Shown one piece after another: positions 4,416-40,023 of a stretch of 64,000 nt of DNA. A program made the translations under genes and the position numbers. The DNA lies in assembly GCA_016839365.1 (NCBI GenBank), contig JAEOUH010000069.1, forward strand, positions 33,698 through 97,697, given 5' to 3'. Positions within the stretch are counted from its first letter, which is position 1. Every line of letters begins with the position of its first letter. The notes under the pieces were generated by a model. That model saw nothing but the letters and a program-made list of their open reading frames with translations. It searched no databases and was not told the DNA's origin. Source of the stretch: Candidatus Hermodarchaeota archaeon. Lineage in GTDB: Archaea > Asgardarchaeota > Hermodarchaeia > Hermodarchaeales > Hermodarchaeaceae.

Positions 4416-5039
4416 ATGACCACCCACAATCAGCATTCCAAAGAAGAATCAACAGCTCCTACGGTCTTTCCTGTCTACGTCTTTGAGAGAACTAGCAAAT
4501 CAATCTTCAACTATTGTCTCAACAAAGCCACAGGGTCATCTCCGCGTGAAGCCCTGGGCGTCGTTCTGGGCTTTCGTCGACAATGGCAGGGAGAGAAGTA
4601 TATCCGTATCACCGATTGGGCCACCGGACACGTAGAAGCCAGTATTGCCCATGCCCGGTTCACTCCAGAAGGTATCCTCGAATATCGGCTTACCCTGCAC
4701 GATCGGTATGGCAATAATCCCCATTCTCCTCGCGTCGTCGGCCTCTGGCACTCCCATCCCTTTGGTGGCGATCCGCAGTTCTCCTCAACGGATTTACGTA
4801 CATTCTTCAACACGCCTTTCTGTGCTGAGGGCAACGTCTTCTTTTTGATTGATCCCCTCAGCCGGATCTTCAAAGTGTATATGCTTCGACCACGGCCCGA
4901 ACAGCCCGGCTTACAGCTAGAAAGGGTAGAATGGTGTACCTATCGTCCATCAGTCCCCGCTGGGGAACCAATGCTTCAGGATAACTCGCTAATCCATGAG
5001 GAGGAAATGCGTGATGACGAAGAAGCCCACACCGATTGA
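4416..5039 (+). CDS. JAB/MPN+ (JAMM) metalloprotease, putative Ubl-processing/deconjugating enzyme
   Basis: N-terminal catalytic Glu (PREALG) and a complete JAMM motif VGLWHSHP-x7-S-x2-D (HSHPFGGDPQFSSTD). Confidence 0.9.
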   Translation: MTTHNQHSKEESTAPTVFPVYVFERTSKSIFNYCLNKATGSSPREALGVVLGFRRQWQGEKYIRITDWATGHVEASIAHARFTPEGILEYRLTLHDRYGNNPHSPRVVGLWHSHPFGGDPQFSSTDLRTFFNTPFCAEGNVFFLIDPLSRIFKVYMLRPRPEQPGLQLERVEWCTYRPSVPAGEPMLQDNSLIHEEEMRDDEEAHTD

Positions 5040-5877
5040 TTTAGAGTATTTTGAGAAGGATCAGCATGATCGAACACGACGCTGGTTGGGGGCTACCAAT
5101 CTTGAGGCCGTTCGTCAGTCAACGGTACTGATGGTGGGCGCAGGGGCAGTCGGGAATGAGGTCTGTAAGAATCTCGGCTTGTTAGGGGTTGGGAAAATCG
5201 TTTTGGTGGATCCCGATAAAGTGGCCGCCTCCAATTTGAACCGCTGTGTTTTCTTTCGTCCAGGAGACCACGATATTAAGTTCAAAGTCGATGCAGTGGC
5301 TGAGCGGCTCCCTGAACTCGCAACCGATACAGTGGTTGAACCACATGCCATACCGATACAGGTTGCACCGGACGAAGTGTGGGATGTTGACTTAGTGTTG
5401 GTCGGTGTTGACAACCATTATGCCCGCTACCTGCTGAATGCTAAAAATCTCAGCATCGAGCCACCCTTGCCAGTGATAAATGGGGCTATGGGAAAGGACT
5501 TCGTGTCAGTTGAAGTCCTCGCGCCACCAAAGACAGCGTGCTTGGTGTGTTCGTGGAGTAAAGACTTCGTCGATCATGTCATCACCAACGAAGTACGCAC
5601 ACGATGTGATCCTTTCTTTGTTGACACTATGCCCCGATTTCCCATGATTAGTTTTGTTACCTCCGTTGTGGGCGCAGTGATGGCGTGGGAAGCCACAAAG
5701 ATGCTTGCTGGATTACAGCAGTGGCGTCTAACGGGGCAATGGCAGGAGGGGCTCAAACCAGCACTTGGCCGGTTCATCCAATACGACTTACACAAGCATA
5801 AATCCATGACAGGACCAATTATGGCAAATCCACGGTGTACAGAAATTTTCTGTCGCGATAAGCGGAAACATCTCTAA
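5014..5877 (+). CDS. ThiF/UBA-family E1-like Ubl-activating enzyme
   Basis: GAGAVGNE nucleotide loop, DPDKVAASNLNR, VDN, Zn ligands CLVC and C-x4-C, candidate catalytic Cys in RTRC. SD GAGGAGG precedes ATG 5014; overlaps the JAB gene. Confidence 0.9.
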   Translation: MTKKPTPIDLEYFEKDQHDRTRRWLGATNLEAVRQSTVLMVGAGAVGNEVCKNLGLLGVGKIVLVDPDKVAASNLNRCVFFRPGDHDIKFKVDAVAERLPELATDTVVEPHAIPIQVAPDEVWDVDLVLVGVDNHYARYLLNAKNLSIEPPLPVINGAMGKDFVSVEVLAPPKTACLVCSWSKDFVDHVITNEVRTRCDPFFVDTMPRFPMISFVTSVVGAVMAWEATKMLAGLQQWRLTGQWQEGLKPALGRFIQYDLHKHKSMTGPIMANPRCTEIFCRDKRKHL

Positions 5878-5881
5878 CCCG

Positions 5882-7483
5882 TTAGATTAAACCAATGGTC
5901 TTCTGCCAGACCGTTGAAGTCGGTTTCTGATCAGCCCACAAGCGTAGGTTCAGAGTTACTTTGGGGGCTCCATTTGGCATAGGGAGGTTCATCCAAATAT
6001 TCACAGGGGAATCTAATCGAGGTGCGAAGGGTTCAATAGCCACTACCTGGTCCATAAGGCCGTCTGAAACGGTTGCTGTCATCACCATTTGGTCTAACGG
6101 ATGGGCACTGCTTGGTTTTGGAATCAATGAGACCTTCAAGGGCAACGTACTCCCACGTGGGACAGCATCAGGGGCGTTAACCTCTAATTCTGCGGGGGCT
6201 TCTCTCAACCGGGCGGGAACCGATTCGGGGACACCCACCACTCGTTTTACTTTCCACCCGGTCTCAATCTTGGGCTCAGAACGCTCTCCCTTTTTTCCAT
6301 CAATGGCAACAGTATCAGAGTACCAACTGACTTTGAATTCTTGGCGGACGCGAGTATCCATCCAGTTTCCGATGATAAGGGGAATATGACGGTTTGTCAC
6401 TCCTAACAATCCCATGGCCCCATGCCAGGTCGGATCAACAGGGATCCATTGACCCCGAATCCAAATTTCACTCCAAGCATGACGCTCCCAGGACTGCCCA
6501 TTATAAGCATAACCCGCTTCCAATCGGGCTGGTATTTTGTTCGCGCGACACAACGCCGCAAATAAAGCGGCATATTCAGTGCAATCACCAACCTGCTTTT
6601 CGATAGCATAAGCTGCTCCTCTTTCATACTCTTGACGAACATACCGCATCTTCTTTGTAACTGCCCTCATCGCTGCTTGTGCAAATTGTATCGGTGTTGA
6701 ATGATCTTTAGCAATATCTCGGGCAAGATCTTTGATGAGGTGGTGGTGTGATTCTATGAAATTTTCTGGTTGGGTGAACTTAACGATATTGGATGGAAAG
6801 GCTGAGTTGCGAGTTTCTGGCGGAATATTATACCGTAGTGCGCGATTCCGAATGAGAGCTGTGTACCCACAGGTAAAGGCTTCTCCAACAGCAAGACTAG
6901 CTTGATGAAATCGTATCCATTGATTTCCGATTGTATCATTCTGTTGTTGTCCATCCTTCGGAGAGAACTGGATATCAAGTACCGTTTGCCGAGGAGGCAG
7001 CGAAGGCGGAGCAGCTATTATAACTCGAACATTGCTGATTCGAGCACGTGTAATGTTCTTCACAGTCGCTGAATAATTGACCCTGTGCACTACAATTGGT
7101 GGATGTCCTCCTTCAAAGCGAAAGCATCCCATGACATAATGATCGTCGGGAGGTCCTCGATAGGGATACTTATCGATTGCGGCTTTGATGCGGGTTTCCT
7201 GCAATGCAACAACGATTGTATAGAATCCAGACAGCAGATTTGCCGTCAGTGGCACACTAAATTCACCTGTATTAGTCTTACCAAAATGAAACGGGACCTT
7301 ACTCACCATTCGCCCGAAGGGATCAATGATGTAGACGATCCCATTGTCAACCTTTACATTCGATTTTGCTTGACCCTTTCGTTTCAACTGAATAGAAATC
7401 CGTTGACCGGCTTTAACACTCGGAACACCATCTTGCCTCGTAGGGGCGATAATTTTCAAAGACACGGGAAGATTACTCGTCAT
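5882..7483 (-). CDS. Transglutaminase-like (Cys-His-Asp) domain protein with flanking beta-rich domains
   Basis: GDCTEYAALFAALCRANKIPAR...HAWSEIW...W.PVDPTW gives an intact triad; no obvious signal peptide; overlaps the upstream Zn-finger gene. Confidence 0.85.
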   Translation of the reverse strand: MTSNLPVSLKIIAPTRQDGVPSVKAGQRISIQLKRKGQAKSNVKVDNGIVYIIDPFGRMVSKVPFHFGKTNTGEFSVPLTANLLSGFYTIVVALQETRIKAAIDKYPYRGPPDDHYVMGCFRFEGGHPPIVVHRVNYSATVKNITRARISNVRVIIAAPPSLPPRQTVLDIQFSPKDGQQQNDTIGNQWIRFHQASLAVGEAFTCGYTALIRNRALRYNIPPETRNSAFPSNIVKFTQPENFIESHHHLIKDLARDIAKDHSTPIQFAQAAMRAVTKKMRYVRQEYERGAAYAIEKQVGDCTEYAALFAALCRANKIPARLEAGYAYNGQSWERHAWSEIWIRGQWIPVDPTWHGAMGLLGVTNRHIPLIIGNWMDTRVRQEFKVSWYSDTVAIDGKKGERSEPKIETGWKVKRVVGVPESVPARLREAPAELEVNAPDAVPRGSTLPLKVSLIPKPSSAHPLDQMVMTATVSDGLMDQVVAIEPFAPRLDSPVNIWMNLPMPNGAPKVTLNLRLWADQKPTSTVWQKTIGLI

Positions 7484-7868
7484 TATCTCGACCTACTTGG
7501 TCGGCTTCAGAGCGGGATTCGATTCCTTCTTCTTCTGGAAGAATAACTACTTTTCCACCCAGTGGTTGAGGTGAGCGTCGGGGGACATCGCCCAATATTC
7601 TCACAGATGTTCGTATCTCCGTAGGTTGGCTTCCTAAATCCAATCGGGGACCCAAAAACCGAGTAAAGTGTGGAGAGTGGGCTTCACCGCCACGAACGAT
7701 TGCTCCGGGACAGGTGCCTTGCCCTGATTCTAAGAAGAGGGCACGACACGAAGGACAAATATAGCTACCACAGACTGTACAAATCCACCATTGGCTCCGT
7801 GCATTTTCAAGTGAAACTTGAGTGGCACAAGCCGCACACCGCATTTGGGATGCACCATGTATACTCAT
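7473..7868 (-). CDS. RING/PHD-like Zn-finger protein (candidate E3) with disordered acidic tail
   Basis: C-x2-C-x15-C-x2-C-x4-C-x2-C-x11-CP-x9-H; ATGA overlap with the upstream gene. Confidence 0.7.
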   Translation of the reverse strand: MSIHGASQMRCAACATQVSLENARSQWWICTVCGSYICPSCRALFLESGQGTCPGAIVRGGEAHSPHFTRFLGPRLDLGSQPTEIRTSVRILGDVPRRSPQPLGGKVVILPEEEGIESRSEADQVGRDNDE

Positions 7869-8083
7869 GATGGTCTCTCCTTAAGCTCACGTCGTTTCTT
7901 TTTACCATGAATTCTAATGGAATAATAAGGCGAAAAGTTGGGAGGTCGTTCTTCTTCAAAAGGGATGTCTCTCTCTCGGAGAATCTGAATCCGGGTTTCC
8001 CTCTCAGATTCATTCGTTGATTTTTCAGGTTCTTCCTCATACTCGTCGGGGCTTTCTTTCTCCTCTGAAGGTGGATCCGACAT
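7865..8083 (-). CDS. Small disordered protein (acidic N-terminus, basic C-terminus) in the Ubl operon
   Basis: SD GAGGTG upstream of ATG 8083; fills the gap between the E2 and Zn-finger genes with translational coupling. Confidence 0.65.
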   Translation of the reverse strand: MSDPPSEEKESPDEYEEEPEKSTNESERETRIQILRERDIPFEEERPPNFSPYYSIRIHGKKKRRELKERPS

Positions 8084-8097
8084 AATTGACACCTCGT

Positions 8098-8850
8098 TTA
8101 TCTCTCATCATCAAGAATCCGAACCGATGTACGTCTACTTGGTTTATCCAAAACGCGGGGCGCCCTTCGAACAGATTCCGCGCTTGATGATGAGGACTCA
8201 AGTATGCGTACACGTCCCTGCCGTGAAGCCGCAGCTGGCCCATCCTTGTGCTGGGCTTCCCAGAGCTGATCAAGGGTTTCAACGATTCTGTCTGCATCTT
8301 GCTCATACCATGCCATAGCCGCCATATTTAGACCATGATCGGATTGAAACTGAGATGGTGGTTCTACTCGGTCTGGTTTTAACAATACAAAAAAGGGGAG
8401 ATCTTCAAGGATACGATCTAATTCTCCACGAACCGAGTAGCAGGCATGTCCAGTCCCGCTCGCCGCCAGTCTGGGGTGATACAGGGGCGTTTCTGCTACA
8501 GGTCGAATGGCGCCTATGTTCTGAGGGTACTCTCGGGGCAAATCAAAGATGAATCGATGCTCATAACGTATGGCGCTTGTATCCTCAAGGTTTCTGGGTT
8601 TACGAACGAAGCCGGGGAGATTACGCATAGTAAAGCGAATCCGTTTAAAAGCTCCATCGCGATATCGGGCGATGGTGGAAACGGTGAAATCGCGATTGCT
8701 CCAAGCTGTGTCTTCGCGGTGCGGAGGATCTGGATCCCACCCTCGTCGTCCAAAGAGATTGTTCATAGTGTCAAAAAATGTCTGAATCTGGGTTTCCACT
8801 CTGGCGTTAAACAGCTCAGTAGAGAATACTGGTCGGGTCACGATTATCAC
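8098..8850 (-). CDS. UBC-fold E2-like Ubl-conjugating enzyme
   Basis: FIFDLPREYP...TPLYHPRL-x5-GHAC matches the E2 pattern FPxxYP...TxIxHPN-x-GxIC, with the Cys conserved; LNMAAMAWYEQD matches the E2 LNxxAAxxY helix. Confidence 0.8.
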   Translation of the reverse strand: MIIVTRPVFSTELFNARVETQIQTFFDTMNNLFGRRGWDPDPPHREDTAWSNRDFTVSTIARYRDGAFKRIRFTMRNLPGFVRKPRNLEDTSAIRYEHRFIFDLPREYPQNIGAIRPVAETPLYHPRLAASGTGHACYSVRGELDRILEDLPFFVLLKPDRVEPPSQFQSDHGLNMAAMAWYEQDADRIVETLDQLWEAQHKDGPAAASRQGRVRILESSSSSAESVRRAPRVLDKPSRRTSVRILDDER

Positions 8851-8894
8851 CCTCAGTTCCTGTATTCGTCTCGGGTGTGTGAAGATTTTTTTTG

Positions 8895-9215
8895 TTATTG
8901 TCCGACTTCAGGGACTACATCGAGGAGGAAGAATTCATCATCGGTGATTTTTGGTTCTAGCTCCCCGAAGGTTATACCTGGACTTAGCCGGGTGGGTTCA
9001 GGGGCTTTACGGATGAGCACAAATTCTGCACGCTGGTCCCCGATTTTCGCTTTAGCCCAATCGTCAATACTGACGCCCTCATCACGGGCCTGGGTGACAA
9101 GAGTGCGGATGACTTCATCGACACGGGTATCTTCATCAATGCCGATTCGGAATTCCTTTTGACGGGGCTCAACATCGACGATGATTGAGCGCCAAAATCC
9201 TTCATCTTTACTCAA
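8895..9215 (-). CDS. Ubiquitin-like (beta-grasp) protein ending ...VPEVG-Q
   Basis: 106 aa; strand-strand-helix (DTRVDEVIRTLV), then strands, TFGEL (like the Ub TLxD motif), a final strand FLLDV and a near-terminal Gly. SD AGGTGA before TTG; first gene of the E2 operon. Confidence 0.75.
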   Translation of the reverse strand: MSKDEGFWRSIIVDVEPRQKEFRIGIDEDTRVDEVIRTLVTQARDEGVSIDDWAKAKIGDQRAEFVLIRKAPEPTRLSPGITFGELEPKITDDEFFLLDVVPEVGQ

Positions 9216-9457
9216 GACTGTTCACCTACAAAGGGAGGGTCACAGCACGCACTTTAACTTTACTCGAATCTTAGACGCAAGCTCGCCCTTCTTTAATCGT
9301 GAAAGAGAATAGGTCGGCTCAAAATCACAGACTGATGGCGCTTTGTCTTTGGTTGGTGTGAAAGTTTAAGAGTGATGGACTATTGTGACTTAATGTACTT
9401 GGGCAATACTGAACATGCTAGCTGCTCAGGATAATCCGCGGGAGTGCACTCGAGATA
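9216..9457. promoter_or_regulatory. Divergent intergenic region with candidate BRE/TATA elements for the Ubl and SMC operons
   Basis: Minus-strand AAAGTTAAAG (plus-strand ctttaacttt, ~9252-9261) and plus-strand AAAGTTTAAG (9361-9370). Confidence 0.4.
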
Positions 9458-12352
9458 ATGACCACTAGGCACAAGCCATCCTTATCAACTTCACCAATCG
9501 TGTTTCGTAGTATCCGTCTAGTGAACTTTGTCATTCACCGTGATACCACAATCCAACTCGATCAATCCCCTGTCATTCTTATTACAGGCTCCAATGGAAG
9601 CGGAAAAACCTTGATTCTCGACGCCCTGTTGCTCGCAATTGGCGTTGAATCTCGAAGAGCCCAACGTCAACGCAATTCGGCTTTCATCGGTCGATTCGAG
9701 AAATATGCTGAAGTCATTCTAGAACTTAACAACTACCAACTCAATGGGCGACGAGTCTTAAGAAGCCCCGATCCTACCATGTCTGCGCTTCTTGATAAGG
9801 ACGTTGTGTCGATCCGGCTACGAGTCGATGAAACAAACCGAATATCCTATTGGTTGAATGAAAAACGATCAGTGAATGGCCATCAGATTGCTCGTAAAGA
9901 TATTCGGAAACTCTTCCAAGCTGCTGGACTCTTTGGAGATTCTCCCTTAGCTGTTACTGAGGCTGAGACTTTAGACCACTTTGCCTCCCAATCTCCACGA
10001 CGAAAGTTCGAGACTCTCCTGAACGAAACTGGGCTCCGTAATTGGATGGAAAAACTCGAGGAAGCCCGTCTCCTCGTATTACAGGCAAGAGCCAATGTCA
10101 AGCCCCTCGAATACCGGATCCGCCATGAAGAACAGCGCCTCCAGGTTCTGAAGGCAGCCTATGAAGCTTTTCAACAAAAACAGCAGCTCCAACAGAGACA
10201 GAAGGATCTCGACGTTGAAGCGGCCTGGGCTGAAGTGGCTTATCGTGAGGAGCTTGCTAGCCAACTCCAATCACAAGTTACCAGTCTGGAAACCCAACTC
10301 TCCGACCAAAATGAGAAATTGGACAAGTTAGACCAAAGGAAAACCAGCTTGAAAGAGAAGTGCGAAGCGATTGAAGCAAAACGGGAAAAGCTCCTAACAA
10401 CCATGGACTCGCTACACGATGAGCGGTTGCAAGCACAAGGCCATCGGCGAGGGCTAGAGAATGAACTCAAAGGCATGCTAAATCGAACAGAACGATATAC
10501 CAAGCGTCGGAAGCCCGCAACAGGCAAAATTGACGCCATTCAGAAGGAGTTAGCAACGATTATCCAGGATCGAGATGGCATCGATGATCAACTCGCTCAG
10601 GTCCGACAAGATATTGCCTCAACGGAAGAGTACCTCTTTACCAAACCCCAACGGTATCCACATTTTGAAGAGACAATACTTCGGGGCTGCCTCCGATACC
10701 GGTCTGAACTTGATAAACTCGCACTCTCTGATGCAGTGATTGGGCCCCTTTTTGCGCTCATTCGTATGAAACCGGAGTATGCACAGTACGAAACCGCGGT
10801 CAAACTGGCCTTGGGACGCTACTCCTATGCATTCATTGCTCTGAATCGAGAGGTCTTCGTTGAGGCTAAAAACTTGTATGATCATCTCTGGCCACATGAA
10901 AAGCCAGATCTGGTGGTCGCCCGGACAAATCCCACGACCGCGATAACGCGAGATCGCCCAACGGTTTCTTTACCCGTGATTGGTTGGGCAGCTGATCTCA
11001 TTGAAGGGGATATATATGCCATTAGTTTCCTAAGCCGTGTCATAAACACAGCTATCGCGGAGGAAGGAGCCGATCCCAACACGCTAGTCGATGCCTCTCA
11101 ACAACTCAATTGCAACATCATTACTAGTGAAGGAACAAGTCATTATCTCCGAATCGGCGCCTTTGCCCGACCACCCCGACCCGTTACGGTAAGTTTGGAT
11201 GTCTCTCTCAACGATTTGGGACTAGCCCAGGATGGCGCTGATACACGCATTCAACTCCGTGAACTTCGTGAACAAGAAGCTAAACTGATGCGAGACCGAA
11301 TGCGCATCAATTCTGAAATAAGTCAACTTCGGGCAACCCTCCAAGACCTTCAGCAAGTGCACATATCTCATCTTTCTGATGGGGAAAGAACAGCCCTGGT
11401 CACTAGTTCTGAACATCGAGTCGCTGAATTACAACAACTGATTCTTGAACTGGAAACTGAATGCGACAGGCTTAGCCAAGATTATCAGGAATATAACTTA
11501 GAATTATCACCGATCCATTCCCGACAGCAAAAACTATCCGAACAACTCCAAAACCTTGACCTTCGACGATCACGCCGTCAGGTTGAAATCAACCACCTCG
11601 TTGCAGAGCTCAAGCAACGCGAAGATGAATATGAGCATCTCATTAAACAAACCAAACATTTCCGTAAGGCTGCCACAGCACTGGGAGAACGCCCTCAGGC
11701 TGTTCGAAACCCTACTGCGATTCGTGATGAACAAATCCAAATCCAGGCGATGATTGATACTATCACCGCCACAGCAGACGATCGGCAAGCCTTTGAAGAC
11801 CAGGAACAAGTCGTCTCCCAACTCCAAGACTACCTCAAACAACGTCAGCTCCACTTAGAAAATCTGATGACGGACGTTGATCGAAGACTTCTCGAGTGGA
11901 GACGGCAACTCCAAGAGACGGTTGAAATCCTCAACCACCGTATGAACCAATTACTCAGCCACTTCCTCAAGCAAGTCAAACTGCTTATTCGATTCCCCGA
12001 TGAACCCAGTCGTGCGGAGCTCCACCTTCAACTTGCCATTAACCGCAAAGGCGACTGGCGGACCTATCAAGAAATGTCTGGGGGCGAACGGGTCCTAGCC
12101 ACCCAGACTTTCATTTTAGCCCTACACACTCTCGCCAAGAGTCCCCTCCATGTGATTGATGAATTTACCCAACGCCTCGATGAAGCAAGCCGTGCAGCTA
12201 TTCTCAGTGTTGTTCAACGCGCCCTCGATTTAACCCAAAAAGACTCACTAATTCATCCACAGTTTCTTCTAATGGCTCCCTCCACGGTCGGACTCGAGAT
12301 CCCAGAGACTATGCACCACGTCGTGCTGATCAAAGGACAGGTGAAAGTCTAA
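9458..12352 (+). CDS. SMC-family ATPase of the SMC5/6-related type
   Basis: IRLVNF..H, Walker A GSNGSGKT, two long coiled coils around a hinge (VIGPL...AVKLALG..AFI), signature MSGGER, Walker B/D-loop VIDEFTQRLD, and His-less switch QFLLMAP as in SMC5/6 QF/YxxxTP. Confidence 0.9.
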   Translation: MTTRHKPSLSTSPIVFRSIRLVNFVIHRDTTIQLDQSPVILITGSNGSGKTLILDALLLAIGVESRRAQRQRNSAFIGRFEKYAEVILELNNYQLNGRRVLRSPDPTMSALLDKDVVSIRLRVDETNRISYWLNEKRSVNGHQIARKDIRKLFQAAGLFGDSPLAVTEAETLDHFASQSPRRKFETLLNETGLRNWMEKLEEARLLVLQARANVKPLEYRIRHEEQRLQVLKAAYEAFQQKQQLQQRQKDLDVEAAWAEVAYREELASQLQSQVTSLETQLSDQNEKLDKLDQRKTSLKEKCEAIEAKREKLLTTMDSLHDERLQAQGHRRGLENELKGMLNRTERYTKRRKPATGKIDAIQKELATIIQDRDGIDDQLAQVRQDIASTEEYLFTKPQRYPHFEETILRGCLRYRSELDKLALSDAVIGPLFALIRMKPEYAQYETAVKLALGRYSYAFIALNREVFVEAKNLYDHLWPHEKPDLVVARTNPTTAITRDRPTVSLPVIGWAADLIEGDIYAISFLSRVINTAIAEEGADPNTLVDASQQLNCNIITSEGTSHYLRIGAFARPPRPVTVSLDVSLNDLGLAQDGADTRIQLRELREQEAKLMRDRMRINSEISQLRATLQDLQQVHISHLSDGERTALVTSSEHRVAELQQLILELETECDRLSQDYQEYNLELSPIHSRQQKLSEQLQNLDLRRSRRQVEINHLVAELKQREDEYEHLIKQTKHFRKAATALGERPQAVRNPTAIRDEQIQIQAMIDTITATADDRQAFEDQEQVVSQLQDYLKQRQLHLENLMTDVDRRLLEWRRQLQETVEILNHRMNQLLSHFLKQVKLLIRFPDEPSRAELHLQLAINRKGDWRTYQEMSGGERVLATQTFILALHTLAKSPLHVIDEFTQRLDEASRAAILSVVQRALDLTQKDSLIHPQFLLMAPSTVGLEIPETMHHVVLIKGQVKV

Positions 12353-13143
12353 TGATAACTAATGATACTTCTACATTTCTCCGTGCCTTTCCGCGCCGCA
12401 AGGCCTGGTATGACACTTTCCAATACAACTACAAGCGAACACGACTATCATCTTTTGGAACCAAAGGGATAGTAATTACGCTATGGAATCTGACCAAAAA
12501 GTATGAGGTTGCCCTAAAACAGCACGATACGTTCCCGATTAAGGAAGCGGAGATTGACCGTGAAGAAGTTGCCGATGCATACCGCGTCCTTGATACCCCC
12601 TGGGAACGAACTCTCGATGGGCGTTTCTACTATAATCTCGCTTCAATGCAACATCACCGGGATTCTCAATTGGCTGCTCCTGAAATCGCTCCCGAGGAAT
12701 GGATTTCCCAATTTGCCAATGAGGTCAAACGACGCGCGACTCCGGTACTCTTTTTAATTAATCAAGAGCGGACCATCCCACCTTTCCAATTGCCTCCTGC
12801 TGATTCGCCGGTCGCAATGGACGATGCCCCTACCCAAGATGATAAACAGGCTATGCGCAAACACCGTATCTCTTATGAAGAGATCTCCATAGACGCTCTC
12901 GGCGCTAGAAGGGCGGATATCCTGAAACGGCTACAAGGCAAACGATACAACTATGCAGCCCTATCCGAAATCCTAACCAACTGGGAACTCGATTTACTCA
13001 GCCAGATGATTCGGGATAACATCTGTCCTGCAACGTTCGAAAAAACGGCTATCATTTTTCGACACCCTCCACCTAAAACAAATCCTGCTTTCACTGCTGT
13101 TGCCATTACCGCACAAAACCATGAGGAGGTTCCTCGAAAGTGA
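12352..13143 (+). CDS. Hypothetical protein coupled to SMC; candidate kleisin (Nse4/ScpA-like)
   Basis: TAATG overlap with the SMC gene; helical N-part, Pro/acidic linker and C-terminal helical domain. The kleisin call is mainly positional. Confidence 0.45.
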   Translation: MITNDTSTFLRAFPRRKAWYDTFQYNYKRTRLSSFGTKGIVITLWNLTKKYEVALKQHDTFPIKEAEIDREEVADAYRVLDTPWERTLDGRFYYNLASMQHHRDSQLAAPEIAPEEWISQFANEVKRRATPVLFLINQERTIPPFQLPPADSPVAMDDAPTQDDKQAMRKHRISYEEISIDALGARRADILKRLQGKRYNYAALSEILTNWELDLLSQMIRDNICPATFEKTAIIFRHPPPKTNPAFTAVAITAQNHEEVPRK

Positions 13144-13787
13144 CCTCAGATCCAATACCTACTGACACCATCTCTTCCACAAGCGAGGATTCAGAAGAAG
13201 AGGTGTTAGAGCAACGTCATCTCATTGGTCAGCTCTTTGCCGCCCTCACAGCAAGGTTTCGGAATGAGGAAGGCCAACTCAGCATCGGGGTCAAACGGCA
13301 AGATCTTTTAGAAGCCCTTCATATCAATAAGACTGGCTTAGTCCGCCTCCTCGATTTACTCCGCCAGCAAATATCTCCCCTGGGGCTAGAATTGGTTGAA
13401 TATCGAATGGGACGGGACACGCTCTATTGTGTTCGAACCATTTACGGAGTTCCTGGCGAGCTCACTGATCCTGAATACGCCGTATTAGGAGTCATCATTT
13501 CCACTGTAGAACAGGTGAGTAAACTCCATCGTCCACGCCGGGTGGCCACAAAAGACATCGAAACAATCCTTGTAGCCCGTGGGCGCCTCTCCCGCTACCA
13601 ACTCGATCGTATTTTACGACGACTAACCGAGCTAGGCTATATTACGCGAACCGCACGACGAATTACTTACGGTCCACGACTCGAATTGGAATTTGATGCT
13701 GAACGCCGTGAAGCCATCGCCAGCGCAGCAACCCTGTATCTCGCAGGGGCTACAGCTGATTCGGAGGAAGACCTGAATGAAACTTGA
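13140..13787 (+). CDS. Tandem winged-helix KITE protein (Nse1/Nse3-MAGE/ScpB-like)
   Basis: LRQQISPLGLELVEY...LY, LTDPEYAVLGVII and LDRILRRLTELGYI...ITYGPRLELEF resemble Nse1/Nse3 WH-A and WH-B, including the terminal GPRxxxE; GTGA overlap with the upstream gene. Confidence 0.75.
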   Translation: MTSDPIPTDTISSTSEDSEEEVLEQRHLIGQLFAALTARFRNEEGQLSIGVKRQDLLEALHINKTGLVRLLDLLRQQISPLGLELVEYRMGRDTLYCVRTIYGVPGELTDPEYAVLGVIISTVEQVSKLHRPRRVATKDIETILVARGRLSRYQLDRILRRLTELGYITRTARRITYGPRLELEFDAERREAIASAATLYLAGATADSEEDLNET

Positions 13788-14238
13788 TCTCTCCACCGTT
13801 GGCATCAGTTGTGTAGCCTGTGGAACCCGAATCACACTTGAGGAGGCAATCCAGAAGGAATGGCACCAATGTTTACGGTGTCAGTTCTTCATTGATCCCC
13901 ATTGTCTTGGAATTGTCCAAAACACCATGGGTGGGGTCTGCCCCTCATTTAGCCAAGGAGTGACCCGTCATTCCTTGCAAGCTGCTGATATTCCTACAGA
14001 ACAGATCCTCATATTCGTCAAAGATCAATATCAGAAAGGTCACGGAGGTGCTCTCATCGACTCCTTATTTTATACCAGACCTTCAGCTTTAAAGAAACCA
14101 CAACACCCAAGTCAAATGGAATCGAACTCTGAAGAACCTCTCACCCGAGAAGAAATCTGGCAACGCTTTGGACTCGTTTTAGTGCAGCGGTCCCAAGGTA
14201 AATGGAAAACTTGGGAAAAAGTTGGCAGTACTAGCTGA
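13777..14238 (+). CDS. Nse1-RING-like Zn-finger protein, paralog of 7473-7868
   Basis: C-x2-C-x16-C-x2-C-x4-D-x2-C-x11-CP-x8-H; overlaps the end of the KITE gene by 11 nt. Confidence 0.7.
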   Translation: MKLDLSTVGISCVACGTRITLEEAIQKEWHQCLRCQFFIDPHCLGIVQNTMGGVCPSFSQGVTRHSLQAADIPTEQILIFVKDQYQKGHGGALIDSLFYTRPSALKKPQHPSQMESNSEEPLTREEIWQRFGLVLVQRSQGKWKTWEKVGSTS

Positions 14239-14240
14239 TA

Positions 14241-14672
14241 TTGTCCAAGGGACATAAACTATTTACCTATCAACCACTCATGCCTTCCTATACGAATTGG
14301 CTTGCATCATTTTTGGAGTTGATGGGTTTGGGTGACGAAAAGGCTCCCAGTTGGGTAAAACACGCCGTTCGGCGTTGGAAGCAATTCTATAATGAAATTC
14401 AGTTCATCGATGGACAAATTGATACTGCAAATCCGTTGAGTGTAATTTTCCGAAATGAAGCTCTCTTAAATCAAGTAGTATCCCAATCACAGGCTGTCAC
14501 CTCACCCATTGAACCAACCCTTTCAAAGAAAGAAGAATCAGCTCCATCTCAACCTGAAAAGACTCCTTCGCCAAATCCCGAAAAAAAGCAGCGCAAAGGA
14601 TGGTTCATTTCTAAACTCAAAGACCTCCAATACCTATTCAATCGCCCTCTTTGGTCCTGGGATTCTTTCTAG
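14241..14672 (+). CDS. Hypothetical protein, last gene of the SMC operon
   Basis: 2-nt gap after the Zn-finger gene; Pro/Ser/Glu linker and Trp-rich C-terminal tail. Confidence 0.55.
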   Translation: MSKGHKLFTYQPLMPSYTNWLASFLELMGLGDEKAPSWVKHAVRRWKQFYNEIQFIDGQIDTANPLSVIFRNEALLNQVVSQSQAVTSPIEPTLSKKEESAPSQPEKTPSPNPEKKQRKGWFISKLKDLQYLFNRPLWSWDSF

Positions 14673-15649
14673 ATGGGATCATCCAAACCCATTTTGGAAC
14701 GAATCTTCTCGATGACATCTTCTCCCATCCGCTTCGTTTCTGCTGACTCCGTCGTAGGCTCATCCTGCACATCCTCAGACAGTTGAGGGAGACCCGCTAG
14801 TTTTCTCACGATACCAGAAATTGCATGCTTTGCCACAGAAACCTCAGAACCGCCAGAGAGTAGCACCACCAACCGTCCCTCACAGACTTCTTCCGCTGCC
14901 TGCATCAAAATATCTGTCATTGCAGGAAAGGCACGCAACGAAAGATTAAACCCACCATAGTCTAGGGCATGGGCATCATGACCCATGTTCCACAAGATCA
15001 TCTCAGGGCGAATCCGCCTGGCCCAAGGCAGCGCTAAACGACGTACGGCTTCGACAAAGGAGTCATCACTACTCGAACTTGGGAAAGGGACATCCACATG
15101 CCGATGTGTCACCGTATCCAGGCTTTCCCGGAAACTCGCCTCGAAGTTTAAATGGTATACTCCTTCATCATCCCCAAGGACATCACGAGTTCCATCCCCT
15201 GGATGAGGATCCGTATCAACAATGAAAAAACGATTAACTCCATGCATATGTTGCAAATTTCGAACAAGTAAAGCAGAGTTGTTGTAATAGCAAAAACCCC
15301 AGGATGAACCACGACTAGCGTGGTGCCCAGCACAGCCAGTAAAGGCAAAAGCATTGGCTGCCTCGCCAATCCAAACCGCCTCACCTGCTCTTACCGCGGA
15401 TCCCCCCGACACGAGTGAAGCAGAATCATATCCTGATCTTCTAACATGTTGAATGTGATCAGGGGTGTGCACCTGCAGGAGTAAATCCTCACCTACTCTG
15501 GGCGCTTCTTCCAAAATAACCTGAGTAGTCTCCAATGTTCCCGAATCGCGTAAATAGTCAAGTGCCGGTTGTACACGACCAGCTAGCACCGGGTACCCTT
15601 CAACTGCCATTAAAGGATGGTAGAGTACGAGTGTTGGCTTCTTTTTCAT
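14669..15649 (-). CDS. Histone deacetylase/AcuC-family protein
   Basis: GHHA, GFCYYNN, DTDPHPGDGT and GHDAHALD; LSGGS where the family usually has LEGGY. Confidence 0.9.
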   Translation of the reverse strand: MKKKPTLVLYHPLMAVEGYPVLAGRVQPALDYLRDSGTLETTQVILEEAPRVGEDLLLQVHTPDHIQHVRRSGYDSASLVSGGSAVRAGEAVWIGEAANAFAFTGCAGHHASRGSSWGFCYYNNSALLVRNLQHMHGVNRFFIVDTDPHPGDGTRDVLGDDEGVYHLNFEASFRESLDTVTHRHVDVPFPSSSSDDSFVEAVRRLALPWARRIRPEMILWNMGHDAHALDYGGFNLSLRAFPAMTDILMQAAEEVCEGRLVVLLSGGSEVSVAKHAISGIVRKLAGLPQLSEDVQDEPTTESAETKRMGEDVIEKIRSKMGLDDPI

Positions 15650-15723: not shown

Positions 15724-16935
15724 ATGGATATTCTGATGATAGAAATTCGGAAAATTACTAAAAATGAACGCCCCGCCATCATGGATCTTTACCGATATGC
15801 GTACACAAAATGGACAGATCGGGAGGTTAAGAACGAAGAAATTGATGACATTATTGAGGATGAAACTCTGGGCCTGTTTGAACAAGGGCGCCTGGTCTCT
15901 TCTTTAAGGGTCCACGAATTCCAGCAATCAATCCGTGGTGTACTCAAGGATTGTGGAGGGGTAGCCGGGGTTGCCACATACCCGGAGGCACGACGGAAGG
16001 GATATGTACGAAAATTAATGCAGGAAGGTTTCAAGATGATGCGTGAGAAGGGGCAATCGGTCAGTATGCTCGATCCCTTTAAGCAAAGTTACTATGAAAA
16101 ATTCGGGTACGTTGCTGCAAATACTGCCTATATTGTTGAAGCCCCACTCAAACAGCTACGCATATCAGACACGACGCCTCAGAATGTGGATTGGACCTTT
16201 GAAAGGGTTCGCGCAGTAAATGCCAAAGACGAATATCTAAAGTTTGTCCGCGAAGTAGGTCCTAAACAGTATCATGGTTACATCATTTTCAAAACCTTTC
16301 CTGATGCTATGTGGAGACAGCGTACAAAAGAAAGTCTCATTGTCTTTGTCAAACATAAAGGAAAAATTCAGGCTTTAGGCCGGTATCGGATTAAAGGGGA
16401 ACGAATCAAGGCTGAATTCCGCACAAATATGCAAGTGATCGATCTCTTATGGCGAACCCGAGAAGCTCGTGACAAACTCTTTTTCTTCTTCAGACAACAC
16501 TGGGACCAAATCCATAATATCAGCATACATGCTCCCTTCGATACTAAGGTCGAACATTGGTTCAAAGATGCACGTTTGAAGATTGAACGTAAAACTCCTT
16601 GGATGGTTCGCATCATCGACGCAAAGAACGCAATCCAGAATCTTCCAGGCCTTGGAGAAGACATCGTCACCCTTGAAATCACAGATCCTAATTGTCCCTG
16701 GAATAATGGAACTTACTCCCTTCAATCAGAAAAAGGGCGTTTACACCTAACTAAAAGCTCAGGGCATCCTGAAGTAAAAGCTACTATTCAAGCGCTCTCA
16801 GCCTTAGTCTATGGAACACAACTAGTAGAGGAATTAGAGTTTCAAGAGGAACTATCAGTCACAGAAGAATGGGCTAGACATACTCTTCAACGGTGGTTCC
16901 CGCCTCTCCACCTATATAATGTCGTGTACTTCTAA
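15724..16935 (+). CDS. Eis-like GNAT acetyltransferase
   Basis: GVAGVATYPEARRKGYVRKLM acetyl-CoA motif, YEKFGY, MVRIID, DPNCPWNNG and a C-terminal SCP2-like domain. Confidence 0.9.
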   Translation: MDILMIEIRKITKNERPAIMDLYRYAYTKWTDREVKNEEIDDIIEDETLGLFEQGRLVSSLRVHEFQQSIRGVLKDCGGVAGVATYPEARRKGYVRKLMQEGFKMMREKGQSVSMLDPFKQSYYEKFGYVAANTAYIVEAPLKQLRISDTTPQNVDWTFERVRAVNAKDEYLKFVREVGPKQYHGYIIFKTFPDAMWRQRTKESLIVFVKHKGKIQALGRYRIKGERIKAEFRTNMQVIDLLWRTREARDKLFFFFRQHWDQIHNISIHAPFDTKVEHWFKDARLKIERKTPWMVRIIDAKNAIQNLPGLGEDIVTLEITDPNCPWNNGTYSLQSEKGRLHLTKSSGHPEVKATIQALSALVYGTQLVEELEFQEELSVTEEWARHTLQRWFPPLHLYNVVYF

Positions 16936-36952: not shown

Positions 36953-37474
36953 TTATCGAGCCTTTAACCGTTTTTTGAGCAACGGAATCGCTCCCCCAGC
37001 CTCCAAGTATGCAAGGAGGAAAGGAGGAATCTTTGCAATCTTATAGCTCCTCTTAGTGCCTTGATTGATCAGGATTGATTCTTGTAAATCGATTTCTATT
37101 AGATCGCCATCACGGATAATTTCTGGATCTTTTTTGAGTTCAGAACATTCGATGGCAGGAAGACCAATATTGAATGAATTCCGGAAGAAAATTCGTGCGA
37201 ATGAAGCTGCAACAACTGCTCCGATACCCAATTGCTTCAAGATGGCAGGAGCTTCCTCACGGCTAGAACCAATGCCAAAGTGTTCACCGCTAACAATAAT
37301 GTCACCTACTTGAACCTTTTCAGCAAACTCAGGCCGAAGATGCTGAAAGGCATAGGTGGTGAGTTTCGTTATTTCAATAGTGGAGAGATGTACACCTGAG
37401 ATGATGTCGTCTGTGCTAATATCACTGCCAAACCGCCAGACCTTCCCAGTGATAAACGATATCTGCTTTGGCAT
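36953..37474 (-). CDS. leuD: 3-isopropylmalate dehydratase/homoaconitase small subunit
   Basis: FGSDISTDDII, FGIGSSREEA, SFARIFFRNSFNIGLP; substrate (leuD vs hacB) unresolved. Confidence 0.85.
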   Translation of the reverse strand: MPKQISFITGKVWRFGSDISTDDIISGVHLSTIEITKLTTYAFQHLRPEFAEKVQVGDIIVSGEHFGIGSSREEAPAILKQLGIGAVVAASFARIFFRNSFNIGLPAIECSELKKDPEIIRDGDLIEIDLQESILINQGTKRSYKIAKIPPFLLAYLEAGGAIPLLKKRLKAR

Positions 37475-37479
37475 TGGAT

Positions 37480-38742
37480 CTATTTACCTCCGCGGGGATC
37501 CGTGATTTTTCCTGTAATCGCACTCGCTGCAACTGTGACGGGTGAGGCTAGATAGATTTGGGCCTCAGCACTTCCCATCCGACCAGGGAAATTGCGGTTC
37601 GTGGAGCTAATACAAACCTCACCTGGCGCCAACAGACCACAATGCCCCCCAAAACAGGCACCACATGTTGCTGGTCCAATCGTGGCACCAGCTTTTACAA
37701 GGGTGCCAATCGTCCCATCGTGGAGAGCGGCATGATAGACTTGGCGACTAGCTGGGTTCACAATAAACCGAACCCCCTCGGCGATTTGGTTACCGTTTAT
37801 TACCTTAGCAGCCATTTGGAGATCTTCAAGTCGACCATTCGTGCACGATCCCAAATAGGCCTGATCGATGGGTGTTCCAGCTACCTCTGCTACAGGAACC
37901 GCTTGCGTGGGAAGCGATGGGGTTGCGACTTGGGGTGTGAGTGTTGACACATCAAAATCCATGCTTTGATCGTATTCTGCATTATCATCTGGTCTTATGG
38001 GTTTAAACTTGCGATCCGTGCGGGTCTTAACATATTCAGTGACGCGTTCATCGGGTGAGATAAGCGCAGCCATTGCTCCGATTTCAACTGCCATGTTGGT
38101 GAGGGTCATCCACGCATCGAGACTCAACTTGGCGAGCGTATCTCCCTGGTATTCGAGGGCTTGAAAGGTGGCTCCTTCCACGCCGAGCTCTCCAAGGGTG
38201 TGCAGAATGATATCTTTTCCCATCACCATTGAGGGCAGGTTGCCCGAATAGGTGATTTTAGTGGTTTCGGGCACTCGGAACCATAATCGTCCAGTTGCTA
38301 ATACAAATGCCATATCAGTGGCACCAATACCTGTTGCTAGGGCTCCGAATGCACCTGCGGTGGTTGTATGTGAATCAGTACCCACCACCAACTCACCAGG
38401 TCGGATATGCCCTTCTTCGACGAGAACCTGGTGACAGATGCCTCGTCCCACATCGTAAAAGTACTTAACGCCAAAATCTGAAACAAATTCTCGAACTTGT
38501 TGGTGAATGGTTGCAGCTTGAATCGTGGGGGCGGGAGCCCAGTGATCCAAGATCACTACCACTCGGCTAGGATCCCAGATTTTCTTAACTCCTGCTTCTG
38601 CAAGCTGGGGAAGCACGCGGGTTCCCAGCATTTCATGGGACATGGCTATGTCAATGGTTGCTTCGATGATTTCTCCAGGTTCTATCCTCTTTTCATCACT
38701 GTGGCTGAGGAGGATCTTCTCTGCTATCGTAAGACCGCTCAT
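37480..38742 (-). CDS. leuC: 3-isopropylmalate dehydratase/homoaconitase large subunit
   Basis: GICHQV, DSHTTT, GSCTNGR, CGACFG, NRNFPGRMG; leuC vs hacA unresolved. Confidence 0.85.
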   Translation of the reverse strand: MSGLTIAEKILLSHSDEKRIEPGEIIEATIDIAMSHEMLGTRVLPQLAEAGVKKIWDPSRVVVILDHWAPAPTIQAATIHQQVREFVSDFGVKYFYDVGRGICHQVLVEEGHIRPGELVVGTDSHTTTAGAFGALATGIGATDMAFVLATGRLWFRVPETTKITYSGNLPSMVMGKDIILHTLGELGVEGATFQALEYQGDTLAKLSLDAWMTLTNMAVEIGAMAALISPDERVTEYVKTRTDRKFKPIRPDDNAEYDQSMDFDVSTLTPQVATPSLPTQAVPVAEVAGTPIDQAYLGSCTNGRLEDLQMAAKVINGNQIAEGVRFIVNPASRQVYHAALHDGTIGTLVKAGATIGPATCGACFGGHCGLLAPGEVCISSTNRNFPGRMGSAEAQIYLASPVTVAASAITGKITDPRGGK

Positions 38743-38747
38743 CTAGT

Positions 38748-39938
38748 TTACAGCTCCTCTAATTGTTGTTGAATTCTTTGGCGAATAGCTTTGCCTACTT
38801 GTTTTGTGGTTGACGGTTTTATATGAGCATACTTACCGACGCAAAGATCGTAGGTACGTATCTGTTCCTCTCCTAGCAGTTCCATTACTGCTGCTTCAAT
38901 TACTGAAGCTGCTATCATTGCTTTTTGATCTTGGTGGCGTTCTCCGAGCCATTCGAGCATCATCTTCCCTGCTAAAATCGCTGCAATCGGATTAGCCCTG
39001 CGCTTGCCAGCATGCTTTGGTGCGGATCCATGTATAGGTTCAAACATCGCATGCAAGTCTCCAATATTACCTCCTGCAGCGACCCCCATACCCCCTTGAA
39101 TCCCAGCCCCCAAATCCGAAATGATGTCCCCATACATATTGGGGGCTACAACCACATTATAGTATTCGGGCCGCCGCACACACCACATCGTCCACGCATC
39201 AATATATGCATAATCGGGAATAATTTTCGGGAATTGCTGTGCCAGTTCTACAAAGACGCGGCGGAAGAGTTGATCACCAATCAACACATTGCTTTTATCC
39301 ACACAGGTGACCCGTTTTTTCTGATCACTTGGTGCTCCATACCCACGTTTTAAAGCTAGTTTCATGGCATAACGAATGACCCTTTCAGATCCCAGCCTGG
39401 AGATTGGGCGAACATCGATGGCAAGCTCTTCCCTTTCGCCTTCTCCATAATGTTTTCCAATACCCGCATAGAGTCCTTCAGTGTTTTCTCGGATGATGAC
39501 AAAGTCAATATCCTTTGGCTGTTTGTCAGCTAATGGTGTCGGAACGCCTGGATACAGCTTCACCGGTCGCACGTTTGCATATAACTCGAGTTCTCGTCGT
39601 TGACCCAACACGACTGCTGCACCTGCTAGTTGCCCATCGTCTCTGCGGACAGGTTCTCCGGGTGTCTTCTCCCATCCGACAGCGCCAAGGAGAATAGCAT
39701 CGGCTTCTTGCTTTGAGAATACTTCGGCTTCTCCTGGCCATTCACAACCTGTCTCCAAATAGTATTTGCCACCACACGGAAACTCATGAAAGGAGAGAGA
39801 TAGTCCAGGAATTCCATTAGACACTATTTCAAGAATTCCTACCGATTCCTGTATAACCTCAGGGCCAATCCCGTCTCCGGGTAACACTTGAATCTTATAG
39901 GTTCGTGGCACAGGAATCCGTTCCGCAATCCTCTTCAC
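38748..39938 (-). CDS. leuB: Isopropylmalate/isocitrate-family beta-decarboxylating dehydrogenase
   Basis: PGDGIGPEV, LYANVRP, RENTEGLY, DKSNV, NMYGDIISD, FEPIHGSAP. Confidence 0.8.
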   Translation of the reverse strand: MKRIAERIPVPRTYKIQVLPGDGIGPEVIQESVGILEIVSNGIPGLSLSFHEFPCGGKYYLETGCEWPGEAEVFSKQEADAILLGAVGWEKTPGEPVRRDDGQLAGAAVVLGQRRELELYANVRPVKLYPGVPTPLADKQPKDIDFVIIRENTEGLYAGIGKHYGEGEREELAIDVRPISRLGSERVIRYAMKLALKRGYGAPSDQKKRVTCVDKSNVLIGDQLFRRVFVELAQQFPKIIPDYAYIDAWTMWCVRRPEYYNVVVAPNMYGDIISDLGAGIQGGMGVAAGGNIGDLHAMFEPIHGSAPKHAGKRRANPIAAILAGKMMLEWLGERHQDQKAMIAASVIEAAVMELLGEEQIRTYDLCVGKYAHIKPSTTKQVGKAIRQRIQQQLEEL

Positions 39939-40023
39939 ACACGGCTATACAAAGTTTCCGACTTTAGAGGGTAAACGTACATGTCGGGCTGTTCGGGATT
40001 ATTCTAAAGCGAATTTAATGCAC

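Follow-up and report, generated by a model that had tools for sequence, protein, structure and literature searches.

The window analysed here is a stretch of 64,000 nucleotides lying on contig C45 of the metagenome-assembled genome (MAG) of a Candidatus Hermodarchaeota archaeon. This source genome is of 2.2 Mb and is 84% complete, and the MAGs nearest to it belong to the Hermodarchaeota/Promethearchaeota (Asgard). Our subject is the gene array at positions 4416-14672, in which an operon for a structural maintenance of chromosomes (SMC) ATPase and its putative partners is divergent from genes for the conjugation of a ubiquitin-like protein (Ubl). The listing of open reading frames (ORFs) gave 11 solid genes and one doubtful one, ORF143, in three compact units, within which the genes overlap by 1-44 nt or are separated by gaps of at most 44 bp (Table 1).

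The first-pass annotation of the window, made from the sequence alone, had described twelve genes in three units. The positions, strands and 242 bp spacer were exact, but ORF143 is missing from most orthologous loci in Hermodarchaeota and is poorly conserved where found. It was rejected as a member of the system and probably lies outside it. All of the other genes of the array are kept in at least 10 related genomes. Pfam bore out the earlier labels of the JAB, E1, transglutaminase and SMC genes, and the single-sequence Pfam scan gave no support for the E2, Ubl, KITE-specific or RING labels. Families of Asgard genomes are referred to below by number; the NCBI labels are Heimdallarchaeaceae for f7, "Heimdallarchaeota" for f12 and f6, and "Asgardarchaeia/Odinarchaeota" for f2.

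Table 1. Features of the array, in window positions, with the basis of each name.
Feature	Position	Strand	Basis
JAB (JAMM metalloprotease)	4416-5039	+	Pfam Prok-JAB
E1, ThiF/MoeB-type	4996-5877	+	Pfam ThiF
Transglutaminase-fold cysteine enzyme	5882-7483	-	Pfam Transglut_core
ZnF1, RING-like zinc protein	7473-7868	-	ZnF2 HMM match
Small acidic protein, 75 aa	7865-8092	-	Orthologue conservation
E2, divergent UBC-type	8098-8850	-	Family profile against PDB
Ubl, beta-grasp	8895-9215	-	AF2 model and Foldseek
Divergent intergenic region between Ubl and SMC operons, 242 bp	9216-9457		ORF coordinates
SMC ATPase, Smc6-like	9458-12352	+	Pfam SMC_N and family profile
ORF263, putative kleisin	12352-13143	+	Operon position only
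KITE-type winged-helix subunit	13140-13787	+	Weak Pfam matches
ZnF2, RING/U-box-like zinc subunit	13777-14238	+	AF2 model and VIA-align
ORF143, doubtful	14241-14672	+	TTG start, no Pfam match

The SMC operon

The SMC gene encodes a protein of 964 aa that matches Pfam SMC_N at 3.2e-22. When a family profile of 14 sequences was run against the PDB, the best matches were to yeast and human Smc6 at 159-165 bits (E ~1e-46 to 1e-47, best 1.6e-47), followed by SMC4 (111 bits), Pyrococcus Smc (103), SMC3 (95) and SMC5 (87). The canonical Smc of the same genome (1187 aa, contig C15), whose gene is followed by those for ScpA and a ScpB-like protein, served as a control and matched Smc and SMC1-4 with no SMC5/6 protein in the top 60. 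These two proteins and Rad50 are the only SMCs of the source genome. Judged by these profiles the window SMC qualifies as an SMC5/6-related paralogue, Smc6-like in character. A grouping with Rad50/SbcC or with canonical Smc was checked for and not seen: Smc6 reached 165 bits, and no other protein scored above 111. Walker A, the signature SGGE and the DE of Walker B are invariant in the family.

The KITE protein matches the Pfam winged helix MarR_2 at 1.8e-4. Members of its family gave weak matches to SMC_Nse1 (2 of 14 members, 0.0022) and, in single members, to MAGE (0.0012), MksE and ScpB, and the family profile found weak generic winged-helix matches only in the PDB. These matches point weakly to an Nse1/Nse3-related winged-helix subunit, and to that extent, a winged helix with weak Nse1, MAGE, MksE and ScpB matches, the earlier KITE label stands. 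Only one KITE gene was detected in the operon. ORF263 always lies between the SMC and KITE genes and consists of a conserved N-terminal region, a variable middle and a conserved C-terminal region. We call it a putative kleisin from its position only.

The first-pass annotation had also remarked on paralogous RING-like fingers in the two operons. The relationship held up: a hidden Markov model (HMM) of ZnF2 matched ZnF1 at 4e-13 and the columns C12, W29, C32, C35, C43, C55 and H65 are invariant in both proteins. The ligands follow the pattern C-x2-C...C-x2-C-x4-[C/D]-x2-C...C-x9-H, the first six being spaced as in C4HC3 variant-RING or PHD modules. Residues 1-90 of an AlphaFold2 (AF2) model of ZnF2 have a pLDDT above 90. 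The model was compared by VIA-align with 48,161 representative chains, and a second look was taken at its Foldseek list. The top VIA-align matches were almost only RING and U-box E3 domains with Z of 4-5. Among them were the RING of RNF4 (Z 4.8, root mean square deviation 2.4 A over 59 of 64 residues), a U-box (Z 5.0), APC11, TRAF6, RING1B and the SP-RING of Nse2/Mms21 (Z 4.3-4.4). The weak top matches of the ZnF2 sequence profile were likewise RING E3s. We read the modelled ZnF2 as a RING/U-box-like cross-brace module and a candidate E3-like protein; orthology with Nse1 is no part of the claim. The fold behind the earlier RING label survives at Z 4-5; an Nse1-type RING found no specific support past this fold and a ligand spacing of C4-x-C type.

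The C-terminus of ZnF2 carries a conserved element, R-E-E-x-W...G-K-F-x-T-W, which is modelled with low confidence and is not in ZnF1. This element is plausibly a docking site for the SMC complex. ZnF2 is encoded in every operon of the SMC subfamily, whether the Ubl genes are present or not, and its gene overlaps that of the KITE by 11 nt. Longer proteins in which KITE and zinc finger are fused were searched for and none was found, a search that is weak evidence. A prediction of the complex of ORF263 and KITE with ZnF2 as partner scored 0.08, which weighs neither way.

Close to the SMC gene (~2 kb) in a complete Heimdallarchaeaceae genome lies an ORF of 223 aa (L030, G015:C1:1354677-1355264) that matches the N-terminal SMC head only (residues 8-204, 3.5e-24). 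This could be a small ATPase gene or a piece of the head left by a duplication.

The Ubl conjugation genes

The Ubl was identified by fold search only, having no Pfam match and an empty result for its sequence profile against the PDB. An AF2 model made from 11 orthologues (pLDDT 85) has beta-grasp topology, and its top Foldseek matches were ubiquitin, SUMO1, ISG15, NEDD8 and UBX domains with E of ~1e-4. The orthologues have an invariant C-terminal Val-Gly followed by 0-3 variable residues. Most stop at the Gly; the window protein ends V-G-Q and other orthologues end G, GF, GIK or GFSS. From sequence, this pattern is that of a modifier able to be conjugated and optionally capped. Across Hermodarchaeota the Ubl is 88-99% identical, a conservation above that of any neighbouring gene. 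The idea that the terminal Gly-Gln feeds a transglutaminase ligation was rejected, the residue after the Gly being variable.

The E2 of the window and its close relatives share an invariant H125-P-R127 with Cys137 nine residues further on. A 12-sequence profile matched 43 PDB sequences, nearly all of them ubiquitin-conjugating enzymes, and with a 38-sequence profile each of the top 60 places went to an E2 enzyme, the best at E 9e-4. In these alignments HP[NR] and the column of the catalytic Cys line up with those of the PDB proteins. Individually, 10 of the 38 family members matched Pfam UQ_con. By these alignments the protein qualifies as a divergent UBC-type enzyme with an HPR...Cys core. 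The first-pass labels of Ubl and E2 were therefore sound, the one by model and fold search and the other by profile. Natural fusions of Ubl and E2 were found in relatives. The family is rare, with 57 clusters at E <=0.001 among 1.84 billion representative proteins.

Motifs of the form [RK]-[IV]-x-I-[IL] are repeated in the E2 tail and occur also in the core of the small protein and in the tail of ZnF1, which is disordered and carries V-R-I-L and V-V-I-L. They persist in f12, f2, f11 and the high-GC variants described below, although the tails around them vary. They resemble strands of the SUMO-interacting motif (SIM) type and are probably Ubl-binding. The conserved core of the small protein reads R-I-x-I-L ... 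PPN-F-S-P ... H, with E40, D42, P50, P51, N52, P55 and H62 invariant. Its orthologues lie directly 3' of E2 in both f1 and f12 despite rearrangement. ZnF1 is conserved in Hermodarchaeota and adjoins the transglutaminase in f12.

JAB matches Pfam Prok-JAB at 1.3e-8, and also the PADLOC JAB models, and its JAMM motif (H112-S-H114...S-S-T-D126) is intact. It adjoins E1 in every gene arrangement examined and is a candidate, from its motif, for trimming of the Ubl tail and for deconjugation. E1 is a protein of 293 aa without a rhodanese domain. It matches Pfam ThiF at 1.5e-34 and NCBIfam ThiF, MoeB, UbaA and Ube1, every one of these below cut-off, and has a GAGAVG nucleotide loop and a C182-x2-C185 pair. 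The transglutaminase matches Pfam Transglut_core at 4e-24, with an apparent GDC...H...D (Cys-His-Asp) triad read off the translation. It recurs beside Ubl-E2 in f2 and f11 and close to the operon in f12. Homologues were also found 0.8-5 kb from SMC-ORF263-KITE-ZnF2 in two genomes of Heimdallarchaeaceae without the Ubl/E2 family (L037:4115-5740 and L039:18067-19671), which hints at a tie of the enzyme to both modules, SMC and Ubl. It is a candidate isopeptidase or protease.

The source genome has a second, canonical ubiquitin cluster on contig C71 (~37384-40685, loci L078-L081), where ~3 kb contain a gene matching Pfam ubiquitin (1.4e-11) and two E2 genes matching UQ_con (3.4e-32 and 5.5e-15). 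Given this cluster, the Ubl genes of the window are an extra, dedicated and divergent system.

Linkage of the two modules in Asgard archaea

SMC-ORF263-KITE-ZnF2 forms a tight operon in at least seven Asgard families (f1, f2, f6, f7, f8, f11 and f12), across which SMC identity is ~25-32%. The position of the Ubl genes relative to this operon varies. The whole array is syntenic within Hermodarchaeota, where the Ubl operon and the SMC gene diverge. A single co-directional operon of nine genes is found in f12 (SMC-ORF263-KITE-ZnF2-JAB-E1-Ubl-E2-small protein), the apparent exceptions there being contig breaks within the operon. JAB-E1 follows SMC...ZnF2 in f2, with Ubl-E2-transglutaminase on a different contig, and in f11 ZnF2-JAB stands at a contig end with Ubl-E2-x-transglutaminase on other short contigs. 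The four-gene operon alone, with no Ubl kit attached, is present in f6, f7 and f8, and in a complete Heimdallarchaeaceae genome it lies among unrelated genes. In a Heimdallarchaeaceae genome a TnpB/Cas12f-like gene (L029:15497-17011(-); Cas12f1-like_TNB and OrfB_IS605 matches) was observed ~4 kb from the SMC operon.

The E2 family was surveyed in 400 genomes of the phylum and was present in 32 of them: 18/18 in f1, 1/1 in f2, 2/2 in f11 and 10/12 in f12. The SMC was present too in 31 of these genomes, the lone exception being a 77%-complete MAG. The SMC was found in 28 of the 31 f7 genomes and the E2 family in none of them (0/31). Thus the E2/Ubl family is confined to four families, all of which have SMC-ORF263-KITE-ZnF2. 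An unlinked or independent distribution of the two operons, the outcome that the first-pass annotation had named as telling against its proposal, was not what was found.

Metagenomes gave a similar picture. With the E2 alignment 21 metagenome loci were recovered, and those with enough flanking DNA all pair genes of the SMC operon with the Ubl kit, except for L093 and L101. The distant members of the family lie mostly on contigs whose 1-3 kb offer no useful context. A contig of 62% GC has the order ORF263-KITE-ZnF2-JAB-E1-Ser/Thr kinase, and a related contig adds a Ubl-E2 fusion. In these high-GC variants (L102 and L106, GC 62%, from GCA_002998485.1 and GCA_964486115.1, and L053, GC 70%) the kinase, of 647 aa, is encoded between E1 and the Ubl-E2 fusion or directly 3' of E2. 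Counting all arrangements, the Ubl kit and SMC operon remain linked in at least four gene orders. On an unrelated contig of 4.4 kb and 32% GC (L084:2313-4381, Logan SRR22808069) three genes stand in a row: one of the ZnF family, a Ubl-E2 fusion and, in part only, a Rep_1 gene for rolling-circle replication. The Ubl part of this fusion ends VVGG and passes straight into the E2. Because the ZnF gene is directly 5' of the fusion, the ZnF family is tied to conjugation enzymes independently of the SMC operon. The conjugation module on this contig may be a copy carried by a plasmid or virus.

Two further genes were observed beside the array. A histone-deacetylase-family (HDAC) gene at 14669-15649(-) lies directly past the SMC operon and is syntenic in both of the Hermodarchaeota genera sampled. 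An Eis-like GNAT acetyltransferase gene with an SCP2 domain follows at 15724-16935(+), with synteny seen in one genus. Eukaryotic cohesin is regulated by an acetyltransferase/HDAC pair. Neither neighbour was seen at loci of other families, so that both were left out of the linkage counts, and their adjacency to the SMC operon may be plain synteny.

Proposed function and comparison with known systems

The results indicate, with a probability that we put at roughly 0.7, that the array encodes two modules acting together: an SMC5/6-related complex in which a RING-like protein is an integral subunit, and a Ubl conjugation pathway dedicated to it. The first-pass annotation had proposed a prokaryotic SMC5/6-like machine of this kind, and the Smc6 profile, the linkage and the separate canonical ubiquitin cluster support it. 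The genes are identified at the level of fold or family and their linkage is conserved in the genomes. What we infer beyond this is the identity of the kleisin, the docking and E3 activity of ZnF2, which proteins are the substrates, and what the short motifs and the transglutaminase do.

The first module would consist of the Smc6-like ATPase, presumably a homodimer since there is a single SMC gene, with ORF263 as putative kleisin, the Nse1/3-type KITE and ZnF2 as an integral fourth subunit. The second would comprise the Ubl ending in Val-Gly, the ThiF-type E1, the UBC E2, the JAMM protease, ZnF1, the small protein as an adaptor and the transglutaminase-fold enzyme. The JAMM protease would trim the 0-3 residues past the terminal Gly of the Ubl and would also undo conjugation. 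E1 would adenylate the Ubl and pass it to Cys137 of E2. The conserved C-terminal element would dock ZnF2 on the SMC complex, where the protein could then act as an E3-like adaptor bringing E2~Ubl to subunits of the complex or to proteins on the DNA that the complex holds. The SIM-like strands of the E2 tail, the small protein and ZnF1 probably bind the Ubl during these steps. Nse2 is an SP-RING SUMO ligase on the Smc5 arm, and the proposed mechanism would parallel the ubiquitination of Nse4 by the Nse1 RING and the SUMOylation of SMC5/6 by Nse2 in eukaryotes.

Several observations weigh against this reading. The operons have one SMC gene each and no Smc5/Smc6 pair. In the subfamily T-[E/G/A]-[E/A/Q] stands where canonical SMCs have the Q-loop Gln, and the canonical H-loop His is replaced by a Pro within P-Q-F-x-L-x-x-P; as neither residue is conserved, the ATPase cycle may differ. 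In hhalign comparisons ORF263 showed no similarity to the Asgard ScpA family or to the KITE family. It matched no Pfam kleisin family, and its profile against the PDB gave no Nse4 and only an insignificant NSE1 match (E 0.21). For ZnF2 the Foldseek search of the model gave no match below E 0.3, the VIA-align results listed no Nse1 and no Nse1-specific match was seen, and the basis of the RING assignment is a Z of 4-5 over a 70-residue domain. Counterparts of Nse2, Nse5 and Nse6 were not recognised at the locus, no search aimed at them having been made. In addition f6, f7 and f8 keep ZnF2, yet no member of this E2/Ubl family was found in them. ZnF2 therefore has no strict need of this Ubl system and may be mainly structural or be served by another E2. 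Synteny within Hermodarchaeota proves nothing, because the flanking HDAC and GNAT genes are syntenic to an equal degree.

The SMC tree is to be read with caution. It was a quick maximum-likelihood search with long branches from which eukaryotic sequences were left out, and on that footing the ZnF2-bearing subfamily forms one group with SH-aLRT 87. Within this group the Ubl-linked lineages (f11; f2 with f1; f12) are paraphyletic around the unlinked f6, f7 and f8. This suggests that the linkage is ancestral and was later lost in some lineages.

The biological role is likely to be chromosome or replicon maintenance rather than that of a mobile defence island. The first-pass annotation had left genome maintenance and defence side by side, and the near-universal, syntenic presence within families favours the former. 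The alternative of anti-plasmid or anti-virus defence, in which an SMC-type DNA sensor or clamp would use Ubl conjugation as an effector arm to tag invader or host proteins, we consider unlikely, although it overlaps with the reading above as eukaryotic SMC5/6 also restricts episomes. It draws on PADLOC matches to LmuB (1.8e-21) and JetC for the SMC, to a CBASS-type E1-E2 for E1 and to JAB for the JAMM protease. However, those of the SMC are generic head and coiled-coil matches, and E2, Ubl, ZnF, KITE and ORF263 matched no PADLOC model at all. The E2/Ubl family is rare and patchy across the phylum, the ZnF gene and Ubl-E2 fusion beside a Rep_1 gene suggest a mobile copy, and the Ser/Thr kinase of the high-GC variants is of a sort present in many conflict systems. 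Defence islands, on the other hand, are not near-universal and syntenic within families as these genes are (E2 in all f1 and in 10 of 12 f12 genomes, SMC in 28 of 31 f7 genomes). The locus has no nuclease or effector of JetD or LmuA type, the GC content of the array is the same as that of the rest of the window, and the neighbours in Heimdallarchaeaceae are housekeeping and transport genes, save the one TnpB-like gene.

It is improbable that the two modules are mere neighbours without crosstalk, the Ubl serving general proteostasis or another pathway and ZnF2 being structural or DNA-binding. The retention of ZnF2 in lineages without this Ubl kit would fit such an arrangement, as would the separate contig of Ubl-E2-transglutaminase in f2, and the complex prediction yielded no usable answer on ZnF2 docking. 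Yet pure coincidence is hard to reconcile with a link that survives at least four gene orders, among them a single operon whose genes run in one direction with little or no space between them. The E2/Ubl family never occurs in a genome family without the SMC operon, the zinc proteins of the two operons are paralogous, and a separate canonical ubiquitin system is available for general use in the source genome. A sulfur-carrier pair of MoaD/ThiS-MoeB/ThiF type for cofactor synthesis or tRNA thiolation is scarcely credible: E1 is of minimal ThiF/MoeB type with its best NCBIfam matches to ThiF and MoeB, but these fall far below the cut-offs, the pair is accompanied by a UBC-type E2 with catalytic Cys, two RING-like proteins and a JAMM protease, the Ubl is structurally like ubiquitin and SUMO and is fused to E2 in some relatives, and the cluster has no sulfurtransferase or cofactor-biosynthesis genes.

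To our knowledge, SMC5/6 is the least understood of the eukaryotic SMC complexes, and no other among them has ubiquitin and SUMO ligases built in. Since the pairing described here survives reshuffling across lineages, the tie of eukaryotic SMC5/6 to ubiquitin and SUMO may predate eukaryotes. More tentatively, and with appreciable doubt, the common ancestor of Hermodarchaeia and Heimdallarchaeia-related lineages, near the stem of the eukaryotes, may have had an SMC5/6-type complex with a RING-like E3 subunit and a dedicated Ubl/E1/E2/JAMM pathway for modifying that complex or its clients on DNA. The eukaryotic ligase functions (the Nse1 RING and, functionally, Nse2) would then be no innovation of eukaryotes but would descend from this Asgard invention or replace it, and KITE and the RING-like gene would be an unfused precursor of Nse1. 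If true, this moves the origin of the SMC-ligase connection before eukaryogenesis. The connection can be tested with a handful of small prokaryotic proteins. A rare and very divergent E2/Ubl family of ~57 clusters is added to the prokaryotic ubiquitin-like systems.

The array shares with Wadjet (JetABCD) and Lamassu (LmuB) an SMC-like ATPase encoded in an operon with putative kleisin- and KITE-like partners, and its SMC has generic matches to the PADLOC LmuB and JetC models. Unlike them it has no nuclease domain in any of its 12 genes, its SMC is Smc6-like and not MukB-like, and it is near-universal and syntenic within families. With Bil and CBASS Cap2/Cap3 it has in common a Gly-ending Ubl, an E1 adenylation domain and a JAB, the latter two related to the PADLOC E1-E2, BilD and JAB models. 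In the window, however, E1 and E2 are separate proteins, E2 and Ubl match no Bil or Cap model, and in place of a CD-NTase or tail-fibre-targeting context there are two RING-like proteins and an SMC complex.

The ubiquitin operon of Caldiarchaeum subterraneum and Asgard archaea (PMC3082918, PMC5654768) is closer in content, with a Gly-ending beta-grasp modifier, E1, UBC-fold E2, RING-like protein and JAMM protease in one cluster. Its RING protein is small and its JAMM protease Rpn11-like. The Ubl and E2 of the window miss Pfam ubiquitin and UQ_con, whereas the C71 cluster matches both. The window system adds to that operon the transglutaminase-fold enzyme, the small adaptor and the tie to an SMC.

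Eukaryotic Smc5/6 is resembled in four respects: the SMC profile is best against Smc6 by a wide margin, the KITE has weak Nse1/MAGE similarity, a RING/U-box-like module with spacing resembling that of the C4HC3 variant RING or PHD is encoded directly after the KITE gene, and Ubl-conjugating enzymes are tied to the complex. The C4HC3 variant RING of Nse1 is a ubiquitin ligase acting on Nse4 (PMC8750328). The differences are also clear. Eukaryotes have a Smc5-Smc6 heterodimer and the two KITEs Nse1 and Nse3, whereas the window has one SMC gene, whose subfamily does not conserve the Q-loop Gln or the H-loop His, and one detected KITE gene. The RING of Nse1 is fused to a KITE, whereas the RING-like protein here is separate and closes its ligand pattern with the pair C-x9-H. 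The Ubl, E1 and E2 of the window are private, operon-encoded and highly divergent from the ubiquitin and SUMO enzymes.

The nearest relatives are the SMC5/6-related SMC-kleisin-kite operons known from TACK as well as Asgard archaea and already described in the literature (van Hooff et al., bioRxiv 10.1101/2024.01.07.573240; Yoshinaga and Inagaki 2021, PMC8665677). They agree with the window in the order of SMC, kleisin position and Nse1/3-type kite, and in being a second complex alongside a canonical Smc-ScpA-ScpB-like operon, here that on contig C15. Table S3 of van Hooff et al. lists a Hermodarchaeum genome with SMC5/6-related SMCs and one Nse1/3-related kite, with no Nse4-related kleisin called (bioRxiv 10.1101/2024.01.07.573240). 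The same preprint describes the Nse1 RING as absent from archaeal kites and as a eukaryotic innovation. In the more distant SMC5/6-like loci (G249 and G307) the kite is present and ZnF2 is absent. A fourth, RING-like gene and a linkage to Ubl, E1, E2 and JAMM genes go unmentioned in the published accounts of these operons, and the full-text literature searched contained no description of either for an Asgard SMC operon.

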